Of a stretch of DNA of 13,703 nucleotides, positions 2 to 13,703 are shown one piece after another. The DNA lies in the IMG/VR virus record IMGVR_UViG_3300021400_001110, one strand, 5' to 3'. Under the pieces are notes generated by a model that saw only the letters and a list, made by a program, of their open reading frames with translations, was not told where the DNA came from and ran no database searches. The first letter of the stretch is position 1; each line of letters starts with the position of its first letter. This DNA is from a virus. Lineage: Duplodnaviria > Heunggongvirae > Uroviricota > Caudoviricetes. A program made the position numbers and the translations under genes.

Positions 2-3000
2 TTCAGTATGTAAATCCCAGTTAGGATTTTGTCCTGGAATTTCCTTTACCTTATACTTCCATTTAAGAGAATTATAAGTGTTTGTCTTCTTCATCAAGAA
101 AGCATCTACTACTTGTTTGTTCCATTGTTCTGAAGATATAGAATAACCTTTTTCTAGAGCATCTTTATCTTGATTCCATATAGACTCGTAGTAGATATCA
201 TCTTCATCAGGTTCGTCTTCTTTCTTTCTTTTCTTATATTGTGTATATTTTATAGTAGCCTCTTTTACTAAATCTTTATATTGGTACTATCTACCATCAA
301 TATCATAAACCATCATAATATTAAATCCAGGAGAAAGAACTGCTCCAAGTCCAGGATATTTTTTACGAATTGATTTATTAGTAATTATAGAAGCGAAAGT
401 GGAAAGAATATTACTGTATATATTAGCATCACTAAATGGAATCTTTAAATCATCAAGACTATGACTATTAGTAAGATTAAATCTTCTCTTTATTTGATTT
501 ATAATAGATTCAGCAAGTCCTGCTTGTCCTCTAGATGTACTTATATTATTTATAATAGTTCTACCTATAATATCATATAAAGCATCACGAGTTTGTTCAG
601 TAGGATTCTATTGATAAGCACTAATAGCTTCCATTTCAAGAGAAGATTCTTCTAAAGCAATCTAACCAAGAGCTTGATATATACCTCTTACATACTCATG
701 TAAACGTCCTCCTGCATCAAGTGCAGATATTACCTGAGAGAACTCAGTCATTTCAGCTTCATCAGCTTCATGGTCTGCATCCATTTGAATACCATAATAT
801 TCAGTTCCAAGAGTTATAGTATCAAGAGCCTCATTATTATAGAATCTATCAGCACTATTTCTATTACCAGCACCATTTTTAATAGCACTATTATTACATA
901 AATAGTCAATCATTAAAGTTTTAAGAGGTTGTTCATAATGTGTCTGATTGAGTTCTTTTACCTTAGCATTTTTTCCTTCCTCTGTAAGTATTGTAACATT
1001 ATTTACAAGATTAGCTACTACATAGTTAGAAGCCTCAGAATATTGAAGCTTAGCATCTCTGCCTTCTCCAATAAGAGATTCACTATTTATACCACCAAAT
1101 ACTTGATGTGCTTCATATATAGAAGACATTGTATGATAACCTTCTAGTCTCTTTGTAGAAATTATATGATTACTATCAGCATCAAAATAATGATACTTTC
1201 TTACAGGACCACTACCAATACCCTTATCATTTACTCTAATTTCATCAGTCCAATATACACCATCTTCATAACCAAAATCAACTATCTTATAATTGATTCC
1301 TTCTGGACCTTTATAATAGAGTGTATTTCCTCCAGTAAGATCATCAAAAGTTATTTCTCCATCTGGCTTATGTGCAGCATATAACAAAATATTACCAGTC
1401 TAAGCCCAAGGTTTATTAGCCATCTTTTTAAACATATTAAGCATATTAACTCTTGAACCTATAGATTGTTGCATCATATTATTAGTAATAGTATGTGCAG
1501 CAAATTTTACCAGAGATGCAGTCATATGTTGTTTATCATAATAATGCCATATAGGTTTTTTAACTGTTCCTACTTCGTTTTCTTGTAGTGACCAGTTTTC
1601 TAAAATAGAAGTAATTGGATTTATAAAAGCAGCACCATCATGTGAATCTACTGTACCGTCGTCTCCAGTGAAGTTAAATACATTAGCTTGTATATCGTCC
1701 ATTACAGCAAGACGCATTGTTCTTGGTATACCTCTCAAACTATTTTGAGTATAATATCTCATAGTAGCAGGTATAATAACATTACGTTTTAATTGTGCGC
1801 CTTGACCAAAAGCTTCTACTTCATACATTTTTCTATCTATAGCTTTCTTTACTTTATTTTTAGTAGCTACGTCAGTTATAGTATCAATAAGTTCGTAAGC
1901 TTCAAGTAAACTCATACTATCCCAAAATTCCTAGGGATCTATATTTTTTTCAAACGCTAATTTATTAATTGCCTCTTTAATATTAGCATCTTGGTCTTGC
2001 ACTAAATTAGATTCATTTTCAGGATTAAGTGCTGTTCTAATAACTTCGCTAGGTTTTATTCCTATTAAATGTTTATTTTTATGGTTAATTTCTGAACCTG
2101 TAAGAACCATACGTAGATTGTTTCCAAGGAGGCTATTCAACATGAAATATTTATCAAGTATAGGATTAAGTTCTACTTGAGTACCTTCTGGAAAAGCATT
2201 ATGTGCAGTAACAGCTTCATCATTAACTCTTGCTAGTGTTAAAGTTCCATCCCTCTGAATCCAATAGTTAGGAGATTCATCAAGTTTCTTGAGAGCTTTA
2301 GTAAATAAACTTTCTGGATCAGGATTACCCTTAAACATACCTATTCCAGAAATATTTATTTTATTCTTAAGTAATTGATTTAAAAATTTTCTCTTTTCAT
2401 CATTAAGTCTTTGTTTTATACCTTGTTTAGTATAAACATTCATTGCATAATGATATAAAGACTCATTGAAAGATAAATATTGTTTCTTATTTCTTTTTCT
2501 ATGCTTGTTATATCTAAAATGAGTGTCAGCAAGTATTTCAGATTTAACTTCCTTCTATTTAGCAAGAGCAATAAGTTCTTGCTCAGTATAGTTATTAAGA
2601 AGTCTATCTATCTTAAGAGTTAGCTGTTTTATTGCTATAGGATCATAAGACTTAATCTCTCCTATTTCATCAAATACATAAGCTTTATTTAAATCAGGAA
2701 CTAAGTCAAATATCTAAGCATAATCTTGTAAAACATTGCATAATACAGTTTGGTAAGCCTTACCTATACTTTCTATGTAAAGATTTTCAAGGTCACTGTT
2801 AGACATTAATGATAGGTCTTTTCCATTAAATATGGTACTTACCATATAATTAACGAATTTAGTCTTATCAGAGTATGTTGTAGGCTGTATTATTATATAT
2901 TTATCATCGTATGTTAAAGGAATTAAGAATTTATCTACAATAGCATGATAGAATAATTCTCCCTCCGTCATTGATTTTACCTATTTAGTAGTTCCATCTG

Positions 3001-5440
3001 CTAAACGAACATCAGTATCTATTACAGTTCCTTTTATAGCTTTAGGATTATTCATGAATAGGTTAGTATCTAAAGGTAACGCTGATGTTGAATCTTTTAT
3101 ACCTCTCTGATGTTGTGCATCTTTAATAATAGTATGTATATTAGAACCCATGAAAGCTAAACCATAGTTTGGAACACTATCTCCTGCTAAGTTTTTAGTA
3201 TTAGCTTTAGATATTTCTCCAGACATTATCTGTTTAATAGTTACGTAATCATTAGCCCATGTCTATGCATTACTAATGGTAATAAGATCAGGGCCAAATA
3301 CTCCAGCTTCCCATACAGTTTTCCATTCACTATCTGTAGGATCTATACCAAGAATAGAATCTTTAAATACCTTATTATCAAGAATAAATTTATCAAGTTG
3401 GCTAGAAGAATACTATCCATTTTCTACAGCACTTCTAAATTGAGAGTGTATATCTCTTACGACCATACCTCTAACAGCTGTAATAAGGGCTTCTAATGGA
3501 GATTTCTTAAAATTATTCTTAAACAATTCAAATTCTAAAAGCCCATCCTAATTTGATGTAAAGCTAGTTCCAGCAAAAAAGTCAGTAAATTCTAGTAACT
3601 TTATAAATATATCATCATTTCTATTATCAAGTAATGCCTATCTTTTAGCTTTAGTACTTATGTCTTTGTTTTTAAATAATGCTTCCACTGAAGTTTCTGC
3701 TCCACTAGCCTTGTCTCTTAAACTTACTTCTACACCTTTAGTTTCTGACCATTTGGTTAGAATTCCATAAGGATTTAATTCTGGAGTTACTTTAATTTCT
3801 AAAGTATAATTTCCAAAGTCTATAGAATAATGAGTATTACTTTTAGTAATGAATTTATACGGAATTTCTACATTTTCCATTACTTGATTACTATTATTAA
3901 TAGACCTAACCATATCAAAGAATTGCTTATTTGTCTAAAACTTCTTCTTTATAGTCGTTATATATTGATTTGAATTATAGTCAAATATAGTTTGAAGATA
4001 AGACATTTCTGTACTAGAACCTATTTGAGAGGCAAGACTTTCTACTAGAGGGTATCTATTAGTTAGTCCATTTATTCTATTATAAGCAGCTTCAATACCA
4101 AACAAAGAGTTATTTCCTTTAAATACATATTCATATACTGCATCAAATACCTTCATTTCATAAGGATTTACTATACCATCCAGTAAAGCATTTCTTACGG
4201 AATCATAATTATTTATAATAGTTAGAATTTCTCTAAATTTATTTACAGGATTCTAGTTAAAGGTAATTATAGCATTATATAATTCAGTTGTTTTATCATT
4301 TCTACCTATTAGTTGTTGTACTTTTCCAAACAAGCTTGTAAATGCTCCAAGATAATTAACAGGAGTTAGATAAGTATCATCAATAGGAATACTAGAGATA
4401 AGAAACTTAGAAAAATTTCCCATCTCTTTTAAAGCATCACGTACATCAATCTACCATCCATGTACACGATTTTCAGTATCCTTTCCAAATTTATACTTAT
4501 AAACTTCTTTACCGTCTTCATCAGTTTCAATTGGAAAATCTTGATTCTTATCTGAACTAATATAATCCCCAATAGCCTCTTTAGATAATTTGTCAAAATA
4601 AACGACTGATAAATAAGCATTAACTGCTTTAAATAAACTGTCATTATTATCCGTTTCTCCACTAAGACTATCCTACCATCCTTGTTCTATTTCATCTTCA
4701 AGGGTTCCTATCTTACTCTTATGTAATACTAAATTATAAAATCTATCAAGAGTATTTAGATAAGTTCCTACAGGATTATTACCTCTAAACATAGAGTTAG
4801 GAAGACCTTTAGCTAATCCAAGTTTATTTAAGTATCTATAAACTATACGATATTGGTCTCCCATAAATTTCATTATATTCTCATTAAGAGCCTTTTGACT
4901 ATCTACAATAGAACTATCTTTAAGAGTTTGTCCTATTCTAATAACTGTTGCTAATCCAAGTTCTCTTGTAAAATGAGTTTTAAAGTTTTCTCTTGCAGGT
5001 AGATTATTAGCATAGAAAGTATCTAATAACTTATTAAGTCTTTGAGCTTCTATCTATTCTCTGCTTGCTAGTTGTCCATCTATTACTGCACTTAAATCAA
5101 CTTCTTCCTCTCTAGTAATATTACCTTTTGGATACCATTCCAATTCAAGATTGTTTTTAAGCATTTCGTAATGCTTTCCTCCCTTTTTAAAATCTAGAGT
5201 AGGATTATTCTTAGCAGCGGCTTCAGCCAAATCAAGTACTTTCTTAATTTTTAAATCTATTGATTGTTTAAATTTCTCTGGAGATAAAGATTCTTCTTCA
5301 GATTTACTATGATTAGTATCATTAGCAAAAAAATCCATTAGTCCATGAAATACTTCTTCGAAATTTTGGAGTTCCAGAATCTCAGCTGGAACTCCAATTT
5401 CGTCTAATATCCCAAAATTTGGTAATTTACATTGTGACAT
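2..5440 (-). CDS. crAss-like virion-associated DNA-dependent RNA polymerase (single-subunit, two-barrel type; gene B), 3'-truncated, at least 1813 aa under code 15
   Basis: ATG at 5438-5440 (MSQCKLPNFG). Track ORFs 5054, 4673, 3935, 3638, 2981, 2714, 1931, 1400 and 662 share one frame (mod 3 = 2) and all end in TAG. The gaps contain only TAG (17 in total: 287, 608, 662, 1400, 1931, 2555, 2714, 2981, 3263, 3413, 3548, 3638, 3935, 4253, 4451, 4673, 5054), and the frame is open to the left edge. Motifs DSHDGAAFINP, GTVKKPI, LVKFAAH, YGIQMDADH..EMTEFSQVISAL, KIPFSDANIY and SIRKKYPGLGAVLSP resemble crAss-like RNAP. The catalytic DxDxD motif is not in the window. Confidence 0.8.
335..1648 (-). other. 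Conserved RNAP core region of gene B (first double-psi barrel and lead-in to the second)
   Basis: DSHDGAAFINP at 1616-1648, GIQMDADH...MTEFSQ at 734-793 and IRKKYPGLGAVL at 335-370. Recognised from recall of crAss-like RNAP sequences; the mapping to specific barrels is inferred. Confidence 0.6.
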
Positions 5441-5447
5441 ATTAACA
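5438..5447 (-). promoter_or_regulatory. Tight stop/start junction TGT-TAA-T-ATG, probable translational coupling, no Shine-Dalgarno
   Basis: TAA of gene A is at 5442-5444, a single T at 5441, and the ATG of gene B at 5438-5440. Upstream sequence AATACAAGCGATTGTTAAT has no GGAGG-like element, and there is an A at -3. Confidence 0.65.
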
Positions 5448-8400
5448 ATCGCTTGTATTTATTTGATTGATAAAATAATCTATTATATTTTCTAGAAGTG
5501 TAATATCATCATTATCAAGAATACCTTCATCTTCAAGAGTATTTCTTAAATCTTTCTTAATAGCCTATAGGTTTTCCTTAGAATAAGTAATTCCTTCATT
5601 CTAGTCCATCCACCCCATAAGAGCATCTGAATCATTATATTGTTCTTTATCCTATATAAAGTCTTGGAAGGCTTTATTTATTTCTTGTCCTTCAAATGAA
5701 CTAATTAAATTTTCTTGTTCTCTTCTTGTTCCGGGTACAGTACGTTTATTTACAACAATGCTTCCGCTATTATAAATTATATCAAACTTTTGACCTTTAT
5801 CATTAGTAATTGTAAAAGTAGTTCCATCTCCACTTGCTTCTGTTTCTACTATGTTTCCAATTTCTGGATATATATCATTCAAAGTATATATTTTATCAGA
5901 ATCTATTTTAACTACTAATTTGTTAAGGTCTCCAGTACCTTTTTCAAACATCTTTTTATTTAGTTCATTTAACTTCTTGTGAACAAAAGCTATAATATCA
6001 TCGTTATCTAAACCATCAAAATTCCATCTAGAAGGATCTAAACCAAAGTTTTTTACTTCTTCTAATATTGGAAGTTGAACGGTTTCTTCATGTTCTTCTA
6101 CTATAGTAGTATCAGAAGCTTTATCAAATGTAAATTCTAATATAGGATTACCTGGAATTACATCAGTTTTAAATAATTTTCTGTTAGTAGAACAAGCAGC
6201 TATCATATCTCTTGCACTTCCACCTGTCTTTAATAAAACTGGGTCTGAGAAGAATCCATATTTAAATGGGGCAAGAGTTTCTGCCTATTGACTTCCATCA
6301 AATTCATTATAATTCTTTTCAAATGCAACTCCATGGAACATAAGATTAAAGAAATTATCAATACGACAATCTTGATATACTACTTCTCCATCTTTATAAG
6401 TAAAACTATTCTATCCTATTACATCTCTCTAGATTGGAGATTCTTGTAATAATCCAGAAACTTCAGTTCCTCCTATATTAGCCTTTAAGAATTGGTCAAG
6501 TCCATCATAAGTAATTTCATCTTTTTTATTTTCATAATCAAGATATATATGATATAAAGCCTTGTCCCCTTCCCTATTTCTTCTGTTTTCAAATTCCTCT
6601 TGTCCAAAATGCATCTTACTATGCATATAAGAAGCAATCTTAGTAAGGATAAGAGTAAATGCTTTTACTTTATCTTGATTAGGAATAGGAATTGTTCCAC
6701 CTTCATCATTTATAATTAACTTCTTATCTTTAGCATTATTAACCCATTTTTCAGCCTCTTTATAATTGATAGCCTCATTAGGATTTAATGAAGTAGTATC
6801 AAATATACGATTAACTACATTATCAAACAAGTAGTTAAGCATGTTTTGATATTGTTCTGCTAAATCTGGATTAATAAATATTCCATTTACTTCATCAGGC
6901 TTGAATCTTTCTGGATGGTCTTTATAGTGTTTCTTATAATAAGGATTGTCATCTTTAAGTCCTTGTATCCTTCTTATCTAAGAACCAGTATTATCACTCC
7001 ATCCAACTCTAAATCTAGGAATATCTAAAGATTCATTAAACTCCATAAGTTTAAGAACTCTTCCAGCTTTATCTTTATCAGAATGATTTTCTAACCATCT
7101 CTTATATTCAGTAGTAGATATTACTGGGTCACGAGTATCTTCAGGTTTTCTACGTTCTTTTTGTAGAGCTTTATACATTTCTGCATCATCCTTAGCCATC
7201 TATATAAGCTGCTATCTTGTAATTCCTTCCTTATTTTGGAATTCATTCATAGCATTTATAAAACGGTTAAGATCAGCTCTAAAATTCCACATACCAGAGA
7301 GTATACGAATACTATTCGCAAATAGATTATTTGGGAAAGCAAACTCTTTATCTCCAGTATTTGAAGAATAAATATCTTTAAAACCTCCTCTATAGAGAGA
7401 ATGGAAAGAAACTCCAGCATTATCAAGTACTATCATTCTTACTTGAGCTTTAGATTCTATTCCTTTAGCTCTATTTTCTTGTTGTTCTATAAATAGTTTA
7501 CCTAATTGATCCTCTGCTAATGTATTATTATTAGACACAAATAATACCGCATGTCCAACTAAAGATGGATCTATTCCTGGAATAGGAGCAGTAATAATAT
7601 GTACAGGACTCACAACTGAATTTCCAGTTCTAGCATCAAATTCAGATACTATTTTCTTTAACTCCTCAGTTGTGTTAGTTTCACTGTTAAATTCATCAAT
7701 AACGTCATCATAAAGATTTTCAAGTCTTATTTTTCTCTTATCTTCAGCATTTGGAGAATTTTCATAACCATCAATATCTTTAACTTTTAACTATACAAGT
7801 TCTGTACGACCATTAAATTTAGGTTTATTTATTTTAATTTCCTAATCTTTACTTTCTACAAGATTTTTTAACTATTCTTCATAGTGTTTTATTTGTGCTT
7901 CTAAAGAAGCTTTCTCATCTGCAGATAGTTCTGGATTATCCAAAAGTTTTCTCCAAGTATCTGGGTTAGCCACAGCACCAAGAGTAATAATAGCCTTACC
8001 AAAAGGTGTATCTACTCTAGCTTGTATACTTATAACCTTACCTTTTATAAAGTCAAGTTCATTCTATTTAAGAGTTGTAAGTCCAGTGAGTTTATGCACA
8101 TCACTTTTATCTTCAGCTACTAAATAGAATTCAGCTTTCTTCAGAGAATCTTTAGGTAAGCGTCTACTTAAACTAGCAGGTAAATCATATAGATCTATGT
8201 TAAGGTCATATAAGAACAAACTCTTAACAAAGTTAAGATCTCTTACCAATTGTCTCTTTTCTTTACCTGTTGTTGCTATAGTTTCTCCATCAGAACCGAA
8301 TATTCCAATATCTCTTAAACCATTAGCTATCCATTCATTATGAGCACCTGTTTTAACATTTCCTATAAAAGCTACGTTACCATAAGCTCTATAACCAGTA

Positions 8401-11400
8401 GTTTTCTTTTCAAATTCCATTTTTTCAACTTTTTCAAGTTTTTCTTTTTCCTTGTCTGGAATATTTTTTGGGCCTTCTTCTTCTATAGGTTCTTCAGGTT
8501 CTTCTATAACTACTTCCTCAGGTTTTTCTTCTTCTTTTACACTATCTAAAATATTCTATATATAAGCAATTCTAGATTCTATAAAGTCTTGTATAACTCC
8601 TTCAGAAAGTCTTTCATACTTAGTAGTATATTCTTCTTTTATAGGATTTACTACATTAGTTAATTGATTATCTAATACAATGCTCCCTCTTCTGCTTCTT
8701 GAAATCATTGTATATAAGTCTCTCAAGAAATCAGTAGTTTGTTCTATACCTTGCTCATATTTAAATTTTCCATCAGCACCTTTTGTAAAGGCTCCTCCCC
8801 AATCAGAATCTATTATTACATAATCAAATTCAGCTCCTTGAACCTATTTTTTATCTAAGGATGTAAATACAGTTCCTGCTGGTAGATTAGATTGTATAAA
8901 GTTTATAAGGTCTTTATTATCTCCTATATAAGCAACACTTCCGCTAAGTCTTTGAAGATCGTTAGCAGTTATTTTAGATACTACTTTTTCTCCTTCTATA
9001 GTAGTTTCATTTTCAAAATAACTAAGCGGTAATTTATTCTTAAGATTTTCCAATATCTAGGGAAATACAGCATCTGTTGTTTCTTTAGATGAATTTCTCA
9101 TTCTATCTAACATTGAAACTAACTGATTTTGATTCTATACTTTCCAGATACTTTCATTTCTTAATGAAAAATTAAGTCTAGGAGTTCTATAAGCAAGTAA
9201 TGCTTCTCTATTTAAATTATATTCTGCACCTCTTTGATTTTCATCACCAAGTAAAGTAATTCTAACTCCAGCTTTTTTAGCCCAGTTAGCAATGATTTGT
9301 AACTTAGTAGTATCTATATGAGTTGCCTCATCAATTACTAAATGTTTAGGAGCGTCCTTTAATATATATTTAGATTCATCATCATTTAATATTTTTGGAG
9401 TCCACCCATCTAATCCTTTTCCTGTAGTAGCTTTTATTTCTCCAGTATATATAGCTTTAAGAAGATTTTCTACAGTAAGTCCTTTAGCTTTTGGAGCAAT
9501 TTCTTCAAGAGCCTTTAATTGATTATCTGTAGGTCCTGCCACCCAAGTATCTTCATCTTCATTTATAAGGTATTTAGCCTCAACACTAGTTTTTCCTCCA
9601 CCTCCAAGACCAGTAATAATTTCAGTATTCCACATTACAGGCATATTGAGCCCCTTAGCTTTTGCTAAATCTTGTAAAGTTTCAAGGGCTGTATTTACTA
9701 CTTCTGGTTTAGCAGCAAGAGCTTGACCAAGCTACATACCTGGAAGTTGAGTAGCAAGTGGTGCTATTTTAGGATTATCCTTTATAAATTGTAATTCTTT
9801 TCTAAGTTGTTCAGTAGGATCTAAAGCTATCAATGAAGTTAAATACATGAACTTATCATAAGCAGTAAGTTCTTGTAATTCTTCATCAATATTAGATGTA
9901 ATACCTGTAAGTATTTCATCATCTTGATTAAGATGTGCAAGTAAACTCTTAAATATATCTTTTAAATCTCTTCCTTCAGCAATAGCTTTCTAAACGTTAT
10001 CATGGAACTATTTTTCAAGTAAATAAAGAGCATTAGGATCATTTACATCCACAAGACTATCCTATAGGAATTCGCTAGAAGACATACTTCCACTCAAGAA
10101 TCTAAGTCTAGCATTATTAAGGGCCTCAGCAGAACGCTTCAAACTTGCTGTACTATTAGCTTGATTTTCCCTAGATAATTGAATCCATTGATTAATTTCC
10201 TATTTATAACCATTAAGAGCAGATACAAGTTGTCCTCCAATTTTTTCATCCATTTCAAACAAAGGTTCAAAATTCTTAAAGAACTCAGAACCAGTTTGTC
10301 TTCCTTGATGATCAGCATGGAACTTATTTACTGCTTTATTATAAGTCATTCCATCCATAAGTCCAGATTCTCTAGAAGAAGCAGCTACCATAGCAGTAGT
10401 AATATCTATAAGTTTCTTAGCTTCTTCTAAATATTTGATTTGGTCTCCAGAAAGAATGAAATCAGTAGATTTCTCCTTATCCATAAATTGTTGCATTATA
10501 GATTCAAGAGCTTTTTCTACCTCTACTGCACTACCTCCAATTTTTGGAGCTAATTCTCTTACAAGTTCTACAGCAGGATTCTCTTCAATTGATAGTCTAT
10601 CTTCAAGATCCTTTGCGGCTTTTAAATCTGCATCAGTTTGAAAGTCTTTATTTAATTTCTATAGAAGTGGTTCTAATTTATTTAAAGATTCTTCTGTAAT
10701 TTCATTAACACGTCTGTTAAATTCTTCTTCATCCCAAACCTGGTATTCTTTCTATCCTAATTTATCAAGTTGTTTCTTAAGTTCTGCTTGTTTATCTGGA
10801 TCAGCTTCTCCCATATATTGAGTATATAACTCATCATATTTCTAAGCATCCTATATAAAATCAAAATTACCCTCTATACCAGTAGCATCTTCGAACATAG
10901 CAGCAAGCTATTCTTGAACAGAATAGTCTTCCCAACCTTCTCTATTTAAATTCTTCATTACCTCTTCAAGAGTAAATTTAGGTTTTGAAGTTAATTGAGA
11001 ATAAAAACTAGTAAGTCCAGAATAATCATTTGTTCCAAGATAATTTAAAAAGTCTTCCCCAATAGTTTTTTCAAACTTAATTCTAAGAGATTCTCTAACC
11101 TTATTTATAAGTTCATCATAGTTTTCTGCATTCTTTAGTAATTCTTTATTAACAGCAGTTCCTACTCTTCTTGCTATAAGTCTATCTTTTATTTGATTTT
11201 GAGTTTCTCCGAGATAAGCCATTAAATAACGACGTGTACTCTAATCAATAAAAGTAGCTGGTTTAGACATTCCTGTTGTAGTGTCATAATCAAAAGTTTT
11301 AGACTCATCTAAAACAGCCTATAATTTTTGTATTTTAAGACGGGCATTATGTTCTGCAACGGTCATCTATCTCTCTTTAAGTCTTTTAGCAAAATCAATT

Positions 11401-13703
11401 TCGGATTCTCCTTCCATTGGAGTTTTTCTATTTATATATGATTCAGAAGTTTCATCTTCTCCAGGAAGCATTGAATCCACAGTATACATATCTTCATTAC
11501 GAAGAATTCCTTTTTCGTCAAGAGTTTTACGTATATTTTCCCACTATTTACTTCCACCTGTAAGTTTAGATAGAATTGGTTCCATCTATGGCTAGAGTTT
11601 CTGGAATGTAGCAAAAGACTTATCAAGTTCTTCCTCAATTTTAGATGGGTCTTTTACTTGCTATTCATACATTTTGTCTACAAATTCTTTCATACCTCCA
11701 TCTAATAGATCATAATCTACATTAAGCATAGCTCTAGTAAACTATTTCTTTGTAAGAGGCATAAAAGCTCCAGCTAACTAGGGATTTATAGCAAATAGCA
11801 TTTTCTATAAGTACTCAAGAGAATAATCACCATTAAAGAACTTGTCTCTTTCTAATAACATATTAGTAAGGTCTCTACGTGCTTCCTCAAGCTCTAATTT
11901 ATTAGTATTAGCAGAACCATCAGTTTTAGATAATTCATTAATTTTCTATTCTTGAGCTACTATATTTTTAACAAGTTGTTGATATCTTCTCTGATATCCA
12001 GTTATATAAGAAACATCTTGGAGATAATCTCTCAAGGCTGTATAATTTTCATCCTATAGAACTAAGTTTTCAAATAATTCATCTTCAGATTTTACTAAAT
12101 GATTCTTTTGTAATATAGATTCTATTTGTTCTATAGACTATGTAAGTACATTATAAGCATAATCATTTTGAGATTGATTATTCTCATCTGCTGTAAGAAA
12201 TACAGCCTGAGGATTATTCTTATCATCATAAGTTTGTTCTGTTTTATATGATAATTCAGTACTTCCAAGTTGTCCTTTATCATGAAGTCTTTTTAATTCG
12301 TCTCTAATTTCCTGTCCCTTACCCTATCTAAGTAAAGTAAGTAATTCTCCAGATGCCTATTTAGCTTTGAAGTTTCCTTCTTTCAAAGAGAATATACCTC
12401 CACCAACAGCACCTCCTAAGAAAGACATTAAATATCTATCCTACATATTGTCCCATGCTCCGAGGTCAGTTACCTCAGACAGTCCATATTCTCCAGCAAT
12501 TTCTCCAAGTTGTTTTACTATATCTGTTACTAGTTCTTCTGAAGTTTCTTCAAGTCCTTCTCCAAGAGCTTTACCAAAGAATCCTAAAGTTCCTTCCTTT
12601 ATGGCTCCTTGATATTCTTCTACAGCTTTTCTACCTGCCTGTATTCCTTTTAAGAAATACTTTCCAAGACCTTTTCTTTCATCGGTAACAGCATTTTTTC
12701 CTGCTTTTACTGTTGTAGGAACTATAGATTTAAGTTGGTCTGTTAGCTTTTTAGTTTCATCAAGAACTGTATTTCTAAATACTGCTCTTTCAGCTCTCTA
12801 AGCAGGATCATAAAATATTTCTCCAAGACCTAAATACTTATCAACAGAAAACATTCCTACTGTACTTCCAAGAGCTAGCATTGCTGCCTCTCTTTTAGAT
12901 GCTCCATGATCAAGTGCATCCTAGTATACATCAGTATTAGATATAATAGCCATATAACCAAGAGATAAGTCTTGTGCTAGTTTAGTTTTCTTAGCTATAA
13001 TATTTCTAGCAGGAGTAAGATATTTTTCAAGAGCTGCACTACCATAAGTAGAAGCCATCCAATTATCTCCCTTAATAAGTTCATTAAGAGCAGTTCTATC
13101 TTTAGCACCTGTAAGTTGTGCTACTCTAGACATTGCTATTTCTCCTTTTTCTCCTTGAGTCATTAATTGATTTGCTCTGGTAATATATTCTTTGAGAGCC
13201 TTAGCTTTAGCTGCTTCTTCAGTAGCTTTAGTAGCTTTATTTATTTTAGATATATTATTAATAACCCATTGTTGTTGTCCCCATTGTAATGCTACATCAG
13301 AAATAAGACTAGCAAAGTTTTCCATAGAAAACATCTTTTCTTTAGCATAATCAGATGTACTTCCTGTAAATTTAGTACCTATACCTGCTATAGTATTAAT
13401 CAATTTAGAATCTTCTAAGTCATTATCAAAGAGACCAGCCATTCCATATAACATAGGCATAGTCTTAGCCATTTCTCTTACTACTAAAGCTCCAGCATAA
13501 TACTATCCAGCTCCAGGAATAAACATAGGAGCAAGTATAGCTAAATTTTTCATTACTGTTCCTGCAACACTTTTATCCATTCCATCAGAATCAAAAAAGT
13601 CATATTTATTTATCCATGAACCATCAATAGTAAGATTATCAGTAATGCTTAAAATATCCTTATTAGCAGCTGAACGTCCTGCTAATGTTTCATAATAAGG
13701 AAC
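5442..13703 (-). CDS. Giant crAss-like virion cargo protein (gene A), 5'-truncated by the window, at least 2753 aa under code 15, with an internal SF1 helicase domain
   Basis: Track ORFs 5652, 6429, 6978, 7212, 8064, 8844, 9135, 10200, 10908 and 12921 all share one frame (start mod 3 = 0) and each ends in TAG. Hand translation of every gap shows only TAG (46 in total) and no TAA/TGA from the window edge (VPYYETLAGRSAANK...) to ...NQINTSDC-TAA at 5442-5444. Segments YYETLAGRS, WINKYDFFDSD, KALGEGLEETSEELVTD, YLMSFLGGAVGGIF and SIRILSGMWNFRADL resemble the large protein encoded next to the RNAP in Crassvirales (recalled, not searched). Confidence 0.9.
8400..8545 (-). repeat. Low-complexity Glu/Pro then Lys/Glu linker with degenerate short tandem repeats
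   Basis: Translates to VKEEEKPEEVVIEEPEEPIEEEGPKNIPDKEKEKLEKVEKMEFEKK. The plus strand shows recurrent (gg)ttcttc and ttttc units. It lies just downstream of helicase motif VI. Confidence 0.7.
8691..9611 (-). other. Superfamily-1 helicase/P-loop NTPase domain within gene A
   Basis: Ordered motifs in one frame: Walker A GLGGGGKT (9588-9611), Ia VAGPT, Walker B LVIDEATH (9318-9341), motif III LLGDENQ (9234-9254), IV-like FSLRN, V VQGAEFDYVII (8811-8843) and VI LYTMISRSR (8691-8717). Three in-frame TAGs (9135, 9057, 8844) lie between motifs IV and V. Confidence 0.85.

Follow-up and report, generated by a model that had tools for sequence, protein, structure and literature searches.

The window analysed here (13,703 nucleotides of phage DNA) encodes an SF1 helicase whose motif set is far beyond chance and which, judged from residue conservation, appears to be enzymatically intact and under selection. 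It is carried by a giant gene which, in the relatives examined, is fixed directly before the gene for a DxDxD polymerase. Our main reading, to which a probability of roughly 0.4 is assigned, is that the helicase may be injected with the polymerase and may supply it with opened or single-stranded template. crAss-like phages are the most abundant human gut viruses; their injected polymerase hardly reads duplex DNA in the sole case studied. In the largest crAss-like phages a helicase that is conserved and apparently active is encoded directly ahead of the polymerase, and in another family the two are fused; it is a testable candidate for the missing factor that opens the template.

The giant helicase gene and its relatives

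The frame bearing the helicase ends at a TAA (5442-5444) and its 5' end lies beyond the window. The encoded protein aligns at 91% identity with residues 212-2960 of a relative, P0003, which has 211 extra N-terminal residues compared to the frame in the window and 2,960 aa in all. The full-length protein is approximately 2,960 residues long and is a late protein of a large TAG-recoded crAss-like gut phage of the Zeta type; the helicase occupies its middle part. The gene and the in-frame TAG codons of its helicase region are as follows:

5442..13703, minus strand: helicase-bearing giant gene (5'-open frame, 2,753 codons, 46 in-frame TAG codons read as Gln)
9135-9137, minus strand: in-frame TAG within the helicase domain, Q1523 (polar variable column, Q among the commonest residues)
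9057-9059, minus strand: in-frame TAG within the helicase domain, Q1549 (translated frame and alignment column)
8844-8846, minus strand: in-frame TAG one codon ahead of motif V, Q1620 (translated frame and alignment column)

As three in-frame TAGs fall inside the helicase region, the domain is split into four pieces under code 11, and not into three as the initial annotation had it; the first piece (a 169-aa ORF at 9135-9644) carries motifs I-IV and the last carries motifs V-VI. A pseudogene was considered and rejected: every in-frame stop is a TAG, these TAGs sit at variable polar positions of the alignment, and no catalytic residue varies.

No match to the window was found among phage records using megablast, nor to either giant in a PHROGs search. 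A tblastn search with the giant, the helicase, the neighbouring protein and the polymerase core returned only MT835470 and MT835492, both unannotated human-gut records. In phage Lera (Zeta crAss-like), ORF191 is labelled 'RecD-like protein' (Table S1, PMC12386605); it is 8,346 nt long, lies on the late strand, requires stop-codon read-through and is followed downstream by a large ORF, a homing endonuclease and a 'DNA-dependent RNA polymerase' ORF (PMC12386605), its kinship with the giant in the window being one of size, order and label. The UniProt entries A0A8S5RTY8 ('RecD-like protein') and A0A8S5TKT5 ('Helicase') matched the helicase model with TM values of 0.70-0.74 and 25-26% identity, and matched the N-terminal model with E values of 1e-46 and 1e-29. 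These two proteins and, judged by those three traits, Lera ORF191 are members of the giant's family; the window adds one more member to a family which had already been named 'RecD-like' by automated annotation. The names in Lera and UniProt are annotation labels, and literature searches found no functional study, in line with the earlier statement that no functional characterisation was known; the value of the present analysis lies in a hypothesis on the role of the helicase rather than in the discovery of a domain. Assignment as true RecD (the RecBCD subunit) was rejected, because 'RecD-like' merely names the family level.

Motifs, conservation and predicted fold of the helicase

SF1 motifs I, Ia, II, III, IV, V and VI were located in this order at residues 1365-1672 (8688-9605 in the window):

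9588..9605, minus strand: motif I (Walker A), GGGGKT, aa 1367-1372 (K1371 invariant)
9519..9536, minus strand: motif Ia, GPTDNQ, aa 1390-1395 (P in 62/65 and Q in 64/65 homologues)
9321..9338, minus strand: motif II (Walker B), VIDEAT, aa 1456-1461 (D1458 and E1459 invariant)
9234..9248, minus strand: motif III, GDENQ, aa 1486-1490 (Q1490 invariant)
9156..9170, minus strand: motif IV, FSLRN, aa 1512-1516 (R1515 invariant)
8826..8843, minus strand: motif V, VQGAEF, aa 1621-1626 (G1623 and E1625 invariant)
8688..8714, minus strand: motif VI, YTMISRSRR, aa 1664-1672 (T1665 and R1669 invariant)

Since the mapped motifs cover 8688-9605, the helicase span of 8691-9611 proposed in the initial annotation was right, as was its claim that all SF1 motifs are intact. 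The distance from motif III to motif V was measured as 131 residues (about 130 had been estimated), and the motif previously described as merely 'IV-like' is a clear motif IV. Thirteen catalytic or structural residues were invariant across 65 homologues of just 20-37% identity, among them (in domain-alignment numbering, to which 1329 is added to give the residue number in the protein of the window) G36, G39, G41, K42, D129, E130, Q161, R186, G294, E296, T336 and R340, each found in 65/65. Degenerate catalytic residues, which would have spoken against a working enzyme, were looked for in the same 65 homologues and were not found.

The domain from the window on its own matched Pfam AAA_30 (E 1.7e-9; 38.1 bits compared to a cut-off of 27), and AAA_19 likewise exceeded its Pfam cut-off. 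Among the homologues AAA_30 was matched by 65/65 (E up to 0.01), Viral_helicase1 by 55 and UvrD_C_2 by 44. The family profile aligned with Upf1/NAM7 over the whole core (positions 26-363, E 8e-9), and its best PDB profile matches were Upf1, a Dda-like helicase and RecD, while a single-sequence search of the domain against the PDB gave no match. A total of 154 representative clusters matched the family, nearly all of 2,500-3,600 aa with the domain at approximately residues 1,500-2,000.

The domain was modelled using AlphaFold, with the following features:

8604..9716, minus strand: SF1 helicase domain as modelled, two RecA-type domains, aa 1330-1700 (pLDDT 93, pTM 0.89)
9387..9431, minus strand: beta-hairpin predicted at model residues 96-110, after motif Ia and before motif II (model secondary structure)

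Two RecA-type domains were present in the model, the lack of which would have argued against the assignment, and its Foldseek and VIA matches were exclusively SF1 helicases. Residue conservation, the model and its matches agree with the earlier description of a complete and compact motor; the tandem RecA-type domains are accompanied by small accessory elements. No clear SH3-like 2B domain was seen in the model. The predicted hairpin would sit where SF1B enzymes have their 1B 'pin' and may, on the model, have the role of a pin. Fold comparison did not discriminate between SF1A and SF1B, the top VIA Z score being to UvrD (SF1A); the sequence favours a helicase most like SF1B (RecD2, Dda, Pif1, Upf1 and viral SF1). 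The seven motifs and two RecA-type domains are common to it and to SF1B RecD2 (3GPL), T4 Dda (3UPU), Pif1, Upf1, nsp13 and alphavirus nsP2, and the short spacing of motifs III to V is shared with nsp13 and alphavirus-like helicases. It differs in being only 12-20% identical to SF1B and viral SF1 helicases and in being embedded in a protein of approximately 3,000 aa. A 5' single-stranded tail is where SF1B enzymes load; the source of such a tail on an incoming duplex genome is not evident, a point against the supply of template by an injected helicase.

Other regions of the giant protein

The helicase is the sole recognisable Pfam domain of the giant in the window, and long stretches without a recognised domain flank it on both sides. 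Four further features were recorded:

12177..13703, minus strand: part in the window of the N-terminal module (full-length residues 1-720), the best-conserved part of the family
13479..13568, minus strand: hydrophobic stretch, aa 46-75 (full length 256-286; Kyte-Doolittle scan)
8403..8537, minus strand: acidic Glu/Pro/Lys-rich linker after the helicase, approximately aa 1723-1767 (composition; low alignment occupancy)
5445..5447, minus strand: C-terminal Cys codon (homologue comparison)

Mean column identity of the N-terminal module was 42% in the family alignment, and its model had a pLDDT of 74.6; neither a profile search against the PDB nor a structure search gave an informative match for it, and the profile of the region following the helicase likewise had no meaningful PDB match. 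The hydrophobic stretch, the only markedly hydrophobic segment of the giant, could be a membrane segment, and the acidic linker is, from its composition, likely to be a flexible domain boundary. A cysteine was found within the last 6 residues in 210 of 215 homologues. No HExxH motif (zincin-like peptidase) was present in P0001, P0003, P0002 or P0270, and no methylase or nuclease motif was detected by Pfam in the giant of the window.

The neighbouring polymerase gene and gene order

The stop of the helicase giant and the start of the next gene are separated by a one-base gap. The neighbouring gene continues beyond the window:

2..5440, minus strand: first 1,813 codons of the adjoining giant gene (crAss-type RNA polymerase, N-terminal non-catalytic part)

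Over 1,812 aa this part shared 79% identity with residues 2-1811 of P0270 (3,281 aa), which carries GSDYDIDK (DxDxD) near residue 2361, in a part not reached by the window. P0270 gave three collinear motif matches to crAss001 gp50 ('putative RNA polymerase'), with the GSDYDIDK region aligned, and the earlier claim that the helicase giant adjoins an RNA polymerase gene is thereby borne out. GSDYDIDK was invariant in the polymerase-core alignment, and GSDYDIDKAY was found downstream in the contexts L002, L010 and L012. The polymerase-core profile had no meaningful match in the PDB, 6VR4 included.

In relatives the gene order was a muzzle gene (Pfam crAss_MUZ), a gene of approximately 1,000-1,700 aa, a gene of approximately 610-650 aa, the helicase giant and the polymerase giant, and it was kept in relatives reading TAG as Gln, in those reading TGA as Trp and in those with the standard code. 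The window stops short of the muzzle gene; crAss_MUZ was found upstream and in the same orientation in L002 and L010 (the contexts of P0007 and P0113). A complex prediction for the polymerase N-terminus with the C-terminal domain of the giant scored 0.01 (mark 0.32) and was uninformative either way.

Comparison with other crassviruses

In Suoliviridae cr50_1, a second crassvirus lineage, an AAA_30 helicase (E 5e-21) and the polymerase core share a single protein, QOR58058 ('DNA helicase', 4,774 aa). Its core is of the virion type and its helicase of the AAA_30/PIF1 type, and its gene occupies the same late block, after the stabilisation protein; the helicase of cr50_1 lies C-terminally in the polymerase polypeptide itself, whereas that of the window is in a separate upstream giant, and the likeness between the two helicases is distant (hhalign probability 93%, first domain only). 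No Pfam helicase was found in the 4,070-aa polymerase fusion of CrAssphage LMMB. The helicase had no match in crAss001 or phi14:2, so crass polymerases do not generally require one; these are the only two crassviruses for which virion proteomics exists, and its absence from them counts against template supply by an injected helicase.

Both phages share with the window a block of giant late genes set around a two-barrel DxDxD polymerase (phi14:2 gp66 and neighbours; crAss001 gp47/gp49/gp50); in these two phages the products are in virions. BLASTP of P0003 against crAss001 gp47, gp49 and gp50 gave nothing significant, and whole-length and six piecewise HMMs gave noise-level scores against crAss001 gp45-gp50 and phi14:2 gp076-gp082, and so lent no support to orthology of the giant with proven virion proteins. 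Fold comparison likewise gave no link from the giant to the virion proteins of crAss001 and phi14:2.

Possible packaging and role of the helicase

The neighbours of the polymerase are virion proteins in crAss001 (PMC10172136), and those in phi14:2, g065 and g067, are found in virions (GenBank notes; bioRxiv 10.1101/2020.03.07.982082). From this analogy, and from the place of the gene after the muzzle gene in the TAG-recoded late block, we infer that the giant may be virion cargo. The three roles put forward in the initial annotation (opening early promoters, pulling DNA out of the capsid, remodelling transcription complexes) are candidate roles. With M13 as template, the phi14:2 polymerase gp66 transcribed the single-stranded form efficiently but not the double-stranded one, and denatured phage DNA was also transcribed efficiently; QDE-1, which is related to gp66, requires RPA and the QDE-3 helicase (both bioRxiv 10.1101/2020.03.07.982082).

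On the main reading the giant would be packed in the capsid alongside the polymerase, would leave it before the DNA or together with it, and would then refold in the cell. At the expense of ATP, the helicase would track along a single strand of the phage DNA as it enters, and this movement would open the duplex or strip bound protein, allowing the two-barrel virion polymerase to start early transcription. In a variant, it would have a HelD- or nsp13-like role, in which a stalled polymerase is freed or reset. QDE-3 with QDE-1, HelD with bacterial RNA polymerase and nsp13 with the coronavirus RdRp are functional analogies only for the helicase and polymerase of the window. A more specific version, which we regard as somewhat doubtful, is that the giant is the missing partner of the virion polymerase, co-packaged with it, tethered to it (perhaps via the conserved terminal cysteines encoded at the gene junction) and unwinding the entering genome to give a single-stranded template. 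If true, the pair would be a phage counterpart of the eukaryotic RNA-silencing pair QDE-3/QDE-1, and Steigviridae and Intestiviridae, which are without the helicase, would have to open promoters in another way.

The giant could instead be a polyvalent injected effector, a string of independent early-acting modules that enters with the DNA, comparable to P1 DarB or to the polyvalent proteins described by Iyer et al. 2017; its helicase would guard the incoming genome from restriction or CRISPR, for instance by removing bound host proteins or R-loops, or would act on host DNA, without serving the polymerase. Polyvalent proteins sit among late virion genes, often with helicase modules (PMC5512222), and the neighbourhood of the giant in relatives also consists of late virion genes; the long stretches that flank the helicase, in which no known domain is recognised, are in keeping with such a protein. 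In the relative P0113 an ART-PolyVal domain (E 2e-19, residues 2303-2460) is found in the same protein as the helicase and in the same gene order, and it fits an effector equally. We nevertheless consider an effector unlikely: the helicases of polyvalent proteins are mostly SNF2-type SF2 enzymes coupled to methylases, SF1 being rare (PMC5512222), the giant shows no methylase, nuclease or zincin motif and no further Pfam match, and in two deep lineages the helicase stays next to the polymerase or is fused with it.

Two other roles are distinctly less probable than that of an effector. The N-terminal module might anchor the giant at the inner membrane while the helicase pulls DNA from the capsid. 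Other podoviruses finish DNA entry by enzyme action, T7 and N4 completing it by transcription, and the best-conserved N-terminal 720 residues include a hydrophobic stretch; however, this is a single weak segment, and SF1 helicases track single strands rather than duplex DNA, which makes an entry motor improbable. It would be similarly surprising if the giant were not packaged, but made late to act inside the infected cell in replication, recombination or genome maturation. Helicases of the AAA_30, RecD and Pif1 type commonly serve replication and repair. Set against this, the gene was in the muzzle-to-polymerase block, outside any replication module, in all relatives examined, a protein of approximately 3,000 aa with a conserved non-enzymatic N-terminal module is unlike replication helicases, and the replication block of crAss-like phages has its own DnaB and SNF2 helicases (PMC7886860).

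Gene organisation and genetic code

Under code 11 only short frames were found across the whole window, while with TAG read as glutamine the minus strand resolves into two giant frames:

5442-13703, minus strand: helicase giant, 2,753 codons, 5'-open, 46 TAG codons, stop TAA
2-5440, minus strand: polymerase giant, 1,813 codons, 17 TAG codons, continuing beyond the window

A single base lies between the two frames (…GAT TGT TAA t ATG…). G+C content was approximately 30% along the whole window, and no tRNA genes were found within it. Over its residues 212-2960, a database protein of 2,960 aa (P0003) shares 91% identity with the helicase giant frame; as the alignment starts at residue 212, about 211 N-terminal residues fall outside the window. 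The helicase giant family was observed to span TGA=Trp phages, TAG=Gln phages and a standard-code record (locus L011:10001-19567 versus loci L002, L010, L012 and L015); in the standard-code record MT835470 its member is a 2,970-aa open frame.

Identification of the helicase domain

The initial annotation had listed the motifs of a compact SF1 helicase, and every one was found at its place in the helicase giant (minus strand):

aa 1367-1372: motif I, GGGGKT
aa 1390-1395: motif Ia, GPTDNQ
aa 1456-1461: motif II, VIDEAT
aa 1486-1490: motif III, GDENQ
aa 1512-1516: motif IV, FSLRN
aa 1621-1626: motif V, VQGAEF
aa 1664-1672: motif VI, YTMISRSRR

The helicase observation is thus real. TAG codons do split the domain under code 11 as proposed, into four pieces rather than three, since three of them (Q1523, Q1549 and Q1620) lie inside the region; all three occupy variable, polar alignment columns in which glutamine is among the commonest residues. 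Pfam AAA_30 matched the domain above its curated cut-off, and UvrD_C_2 matched weakly over motif VI.

Among the long proteins in a set of 5.8 billion, 173 carriers of the domain were found (2,900-3,500 aa, with identities between 27% and 91%). When 1.84 billion cluster representatives were scanned exhaustively with HMMER, 154 matched; nearly all are giants of 2,500-3,600 aa in which the domain occupies approximately residues 1,500-2,000, and the remainder are fragments. No ordinary cellular helicase was matched at E 0.001, which sets the domain apart as a distinct subfamily. Sixty-five domains were aligned, most of them sharing only 20-37% identity with that of the window; G36, G39, G41, K42, D129, E130, Q161, R186, G242, G294, E296, T336 and R340 were invariant (add 1329 for window protein numbering) and residues neighbouring motifs Ia and III/V/VI were at least 90% conserved. 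Degenerate catalytic residues were therefore not seen among homologues, and the invariant catalytic positions indicate a helicase motor under purifying selection.

An AlphaFold2 model built from this alignment was confident (pLDDT 93, pTM 0.89), and only SF1 helicases were among its top Foldseek matches in the PDB (alphavirus nsP2 helicase, DSH9, RecD2, nsp13, SLFN11, RecD, Dda and tobamovirus helicase). The domain is very probably a functional helicase. The family profile matched Upf1 across positions 26-363 (E 8e-9), followed by Dda-like helicase, RecD, nsp13 and IGHMBP2; sequence comparison points to subgroup SF1B, while the modelled fold by itself does not discriminate between SF1A and SF1B. 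The core is compact, as are those of viral SF1 helicases: only 62 residues separate motifs Ia and II, including a predicted beta-hairpin where the SF1B pin sits, and motifs III and V are 131 residues apart, in agreement with the earlier estimate of about 130.

The polymerase neighbour and late gene block

The polymerase giant frame shares 79% identity over 1,812 residues with the front of P0270, a 3,281-aa polymerase giant whose gene follows the helicase giant on a 188-kb contig. P0270 bears WLQGSDYDIDKAYIMG near residue 2361; in two other distant relatives the motif likewise occurs after the helicase giant, and it was invariant among 34 homologues. By BLASTP, crAss001 gp50 (annotated 'putative RNA polymerase') is matched at three collinear sites, which coincide exactly with the invariant blocks GSD(Y/F)D(I/V)DK, QNMTG and DN(A/V)K. 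These sequence matches identify the neighbour as a crAss-type polymerase gene, of which the window covers just the non-catalytic front part, and bear out the proposed position of the helicase giant next to an RNA polymerase. The solved phi14:2 enzyme was not reached from the neighbour by single-sequence or profile searches, which fits the extreme divergence reported for crAss-type polymerases (PMC7886860).

Upstream of the helicase giant, relatives carry Pfam crAss_MUZ, DUF192, a 1,000-1,700-aa protein and a 610-650-aa protein, all co-directional, and this order is retained whether the lineage reads TAG as Gln, reads TGA as Trp or uses the standard code. Contigs reach 190 kb; size range and recoding fit the Zeta group of crAss-like phages (PMC7886860). 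Homing-endonuclease genes (LAGLIDADG or other) interrupt the polymerase gene that follows the helicase giant in relatives (L011:25278-28551; Lera phage ORF 189, PMC12386605, Table S1).

Previous annotation and distribution

In Lera phage, ORF 191 (8,346 nt) is annotated 'RecD-like protein'; a large ORF, a homing endonuclease and a 'DNA-dependent RNA polymerase' ORF come immediately after it (PMC12386605, Table S1). UniProt labels two members of the helicase giant family 'RecD-like protein' and 'Helicase'. A helicase in this block is not discussed in crAss genomics papers or a 2023 review, and a literature search returned no paper that connects Crassvirales, RecD and RNA polymerase. Databases therefore label a domain that these papers leave unstudied, and the protein of the window is a further member of this labelled family.

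The family profile had no match in crAss001 or phi14:2 (both Steigviridae), and the polymerase fusion encoded by crAssphage LMMB (Intestiviridae), 4,070 aa long, gave no Pfam helicase match. A 4,774-aa protein of cr50_1 (Suoliviridae), annotated 'DNA helicase', contains a polymerase core and a helicase:

L013:4237-18561 (MT774375): cr50_1 fusion protein, polymerase core at approximately 2588-3382, C-terminal AAA_30/PIF1 helicase at 4249-4448 (E 5e-21)

Here the helicase is fused to the polymerase and is only distantly like that of the window. An SF1B-type helicase is thus joined to the polymerase in two deep crassvirus lineages, by a different arrangement in each, which argues for a functional link between the two.

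Remainder of the helicase giant and its possible role

No other Pfam or PHROG family was matched in the helicase giant. Its best-conserved part, exceeding even the helicase domain, is full-length residues 1-720 (mean column identity 42%):

12177-13703, minus strand: in-window portion of the N-terminal module (a further 211 or so codons lie beyond the window)

Acidic clusters in this module, about YDFFDSD and GEGLEE (GEGLEE…SEELV), are invariant; the module also contains glycine-rich segments and the sole hydrophobic stretch of the protein. Its model (pLDDT 74.6) gave no informative fold match; the only match outside the family was to a 1,004-aa viral protein (BFVD A0A345N460, E 6e-7, 15% identity). 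Downstream of the helicase are an acidic linker and approximately 1,000 residues without a recognised family; HExxH is absent from the giant.

The phi14:2 enzyme is efficient on single-stranded and denatured DNA and inactive on double-stranded M13, and its relative QDE-1 requires RPA and a helicase (10.1101/2020.03.07.982082). The polymerase neighbours are virion proteins in phi14:2 (10.1101/2020.03.07.982082; GenBank notes) and, by proteomics, in crAss001 (PMC10172136). By analogy, these observations suggest early transcription as the most likely setting of its role, in which the giant would be packaged and ejected together with the polymerase and the helicase would then open or clear the entering DNA; we give this reading a probability of about 0.4. 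Virion delivery and this role are plausible inferences, and the idea is testable.

P0113, a relative, carries an inserted ART-PolyVal ADP-ribosyltransferase (residues 2303-2460, E 2e-19; L010:10001-20548), so that some family members likely deliver a host-modifying enzyme too; that the giant is an independent injected effector of the polyvalent-protein pattern is a somewhat unlikely alternative to joint action with the polymerase. No similarity in sequence or fold was found between the helicase giant and proven virion proteins of crAss001 or phi14:2. A non-packaged, intracellular helicase is improbable, to the same degree as a motor for DNA entry.

Cysteine makes up approximately 0.2% of both giants (0.18-0.31%). 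It was observed within the last six residues of 210 of 215 helicase giants, being invariant in 42 aligned C-termini, and within the first six residues of 103 of 117 polymerase giants:

5429-5447, minus strand: gene junction with the terminal cysteine codons (alignments A5, helicase giant C-termini, and A6, polymerase giant N-termini)

The conserved pair may form a disulfide or a shared metal site tethering both giants.
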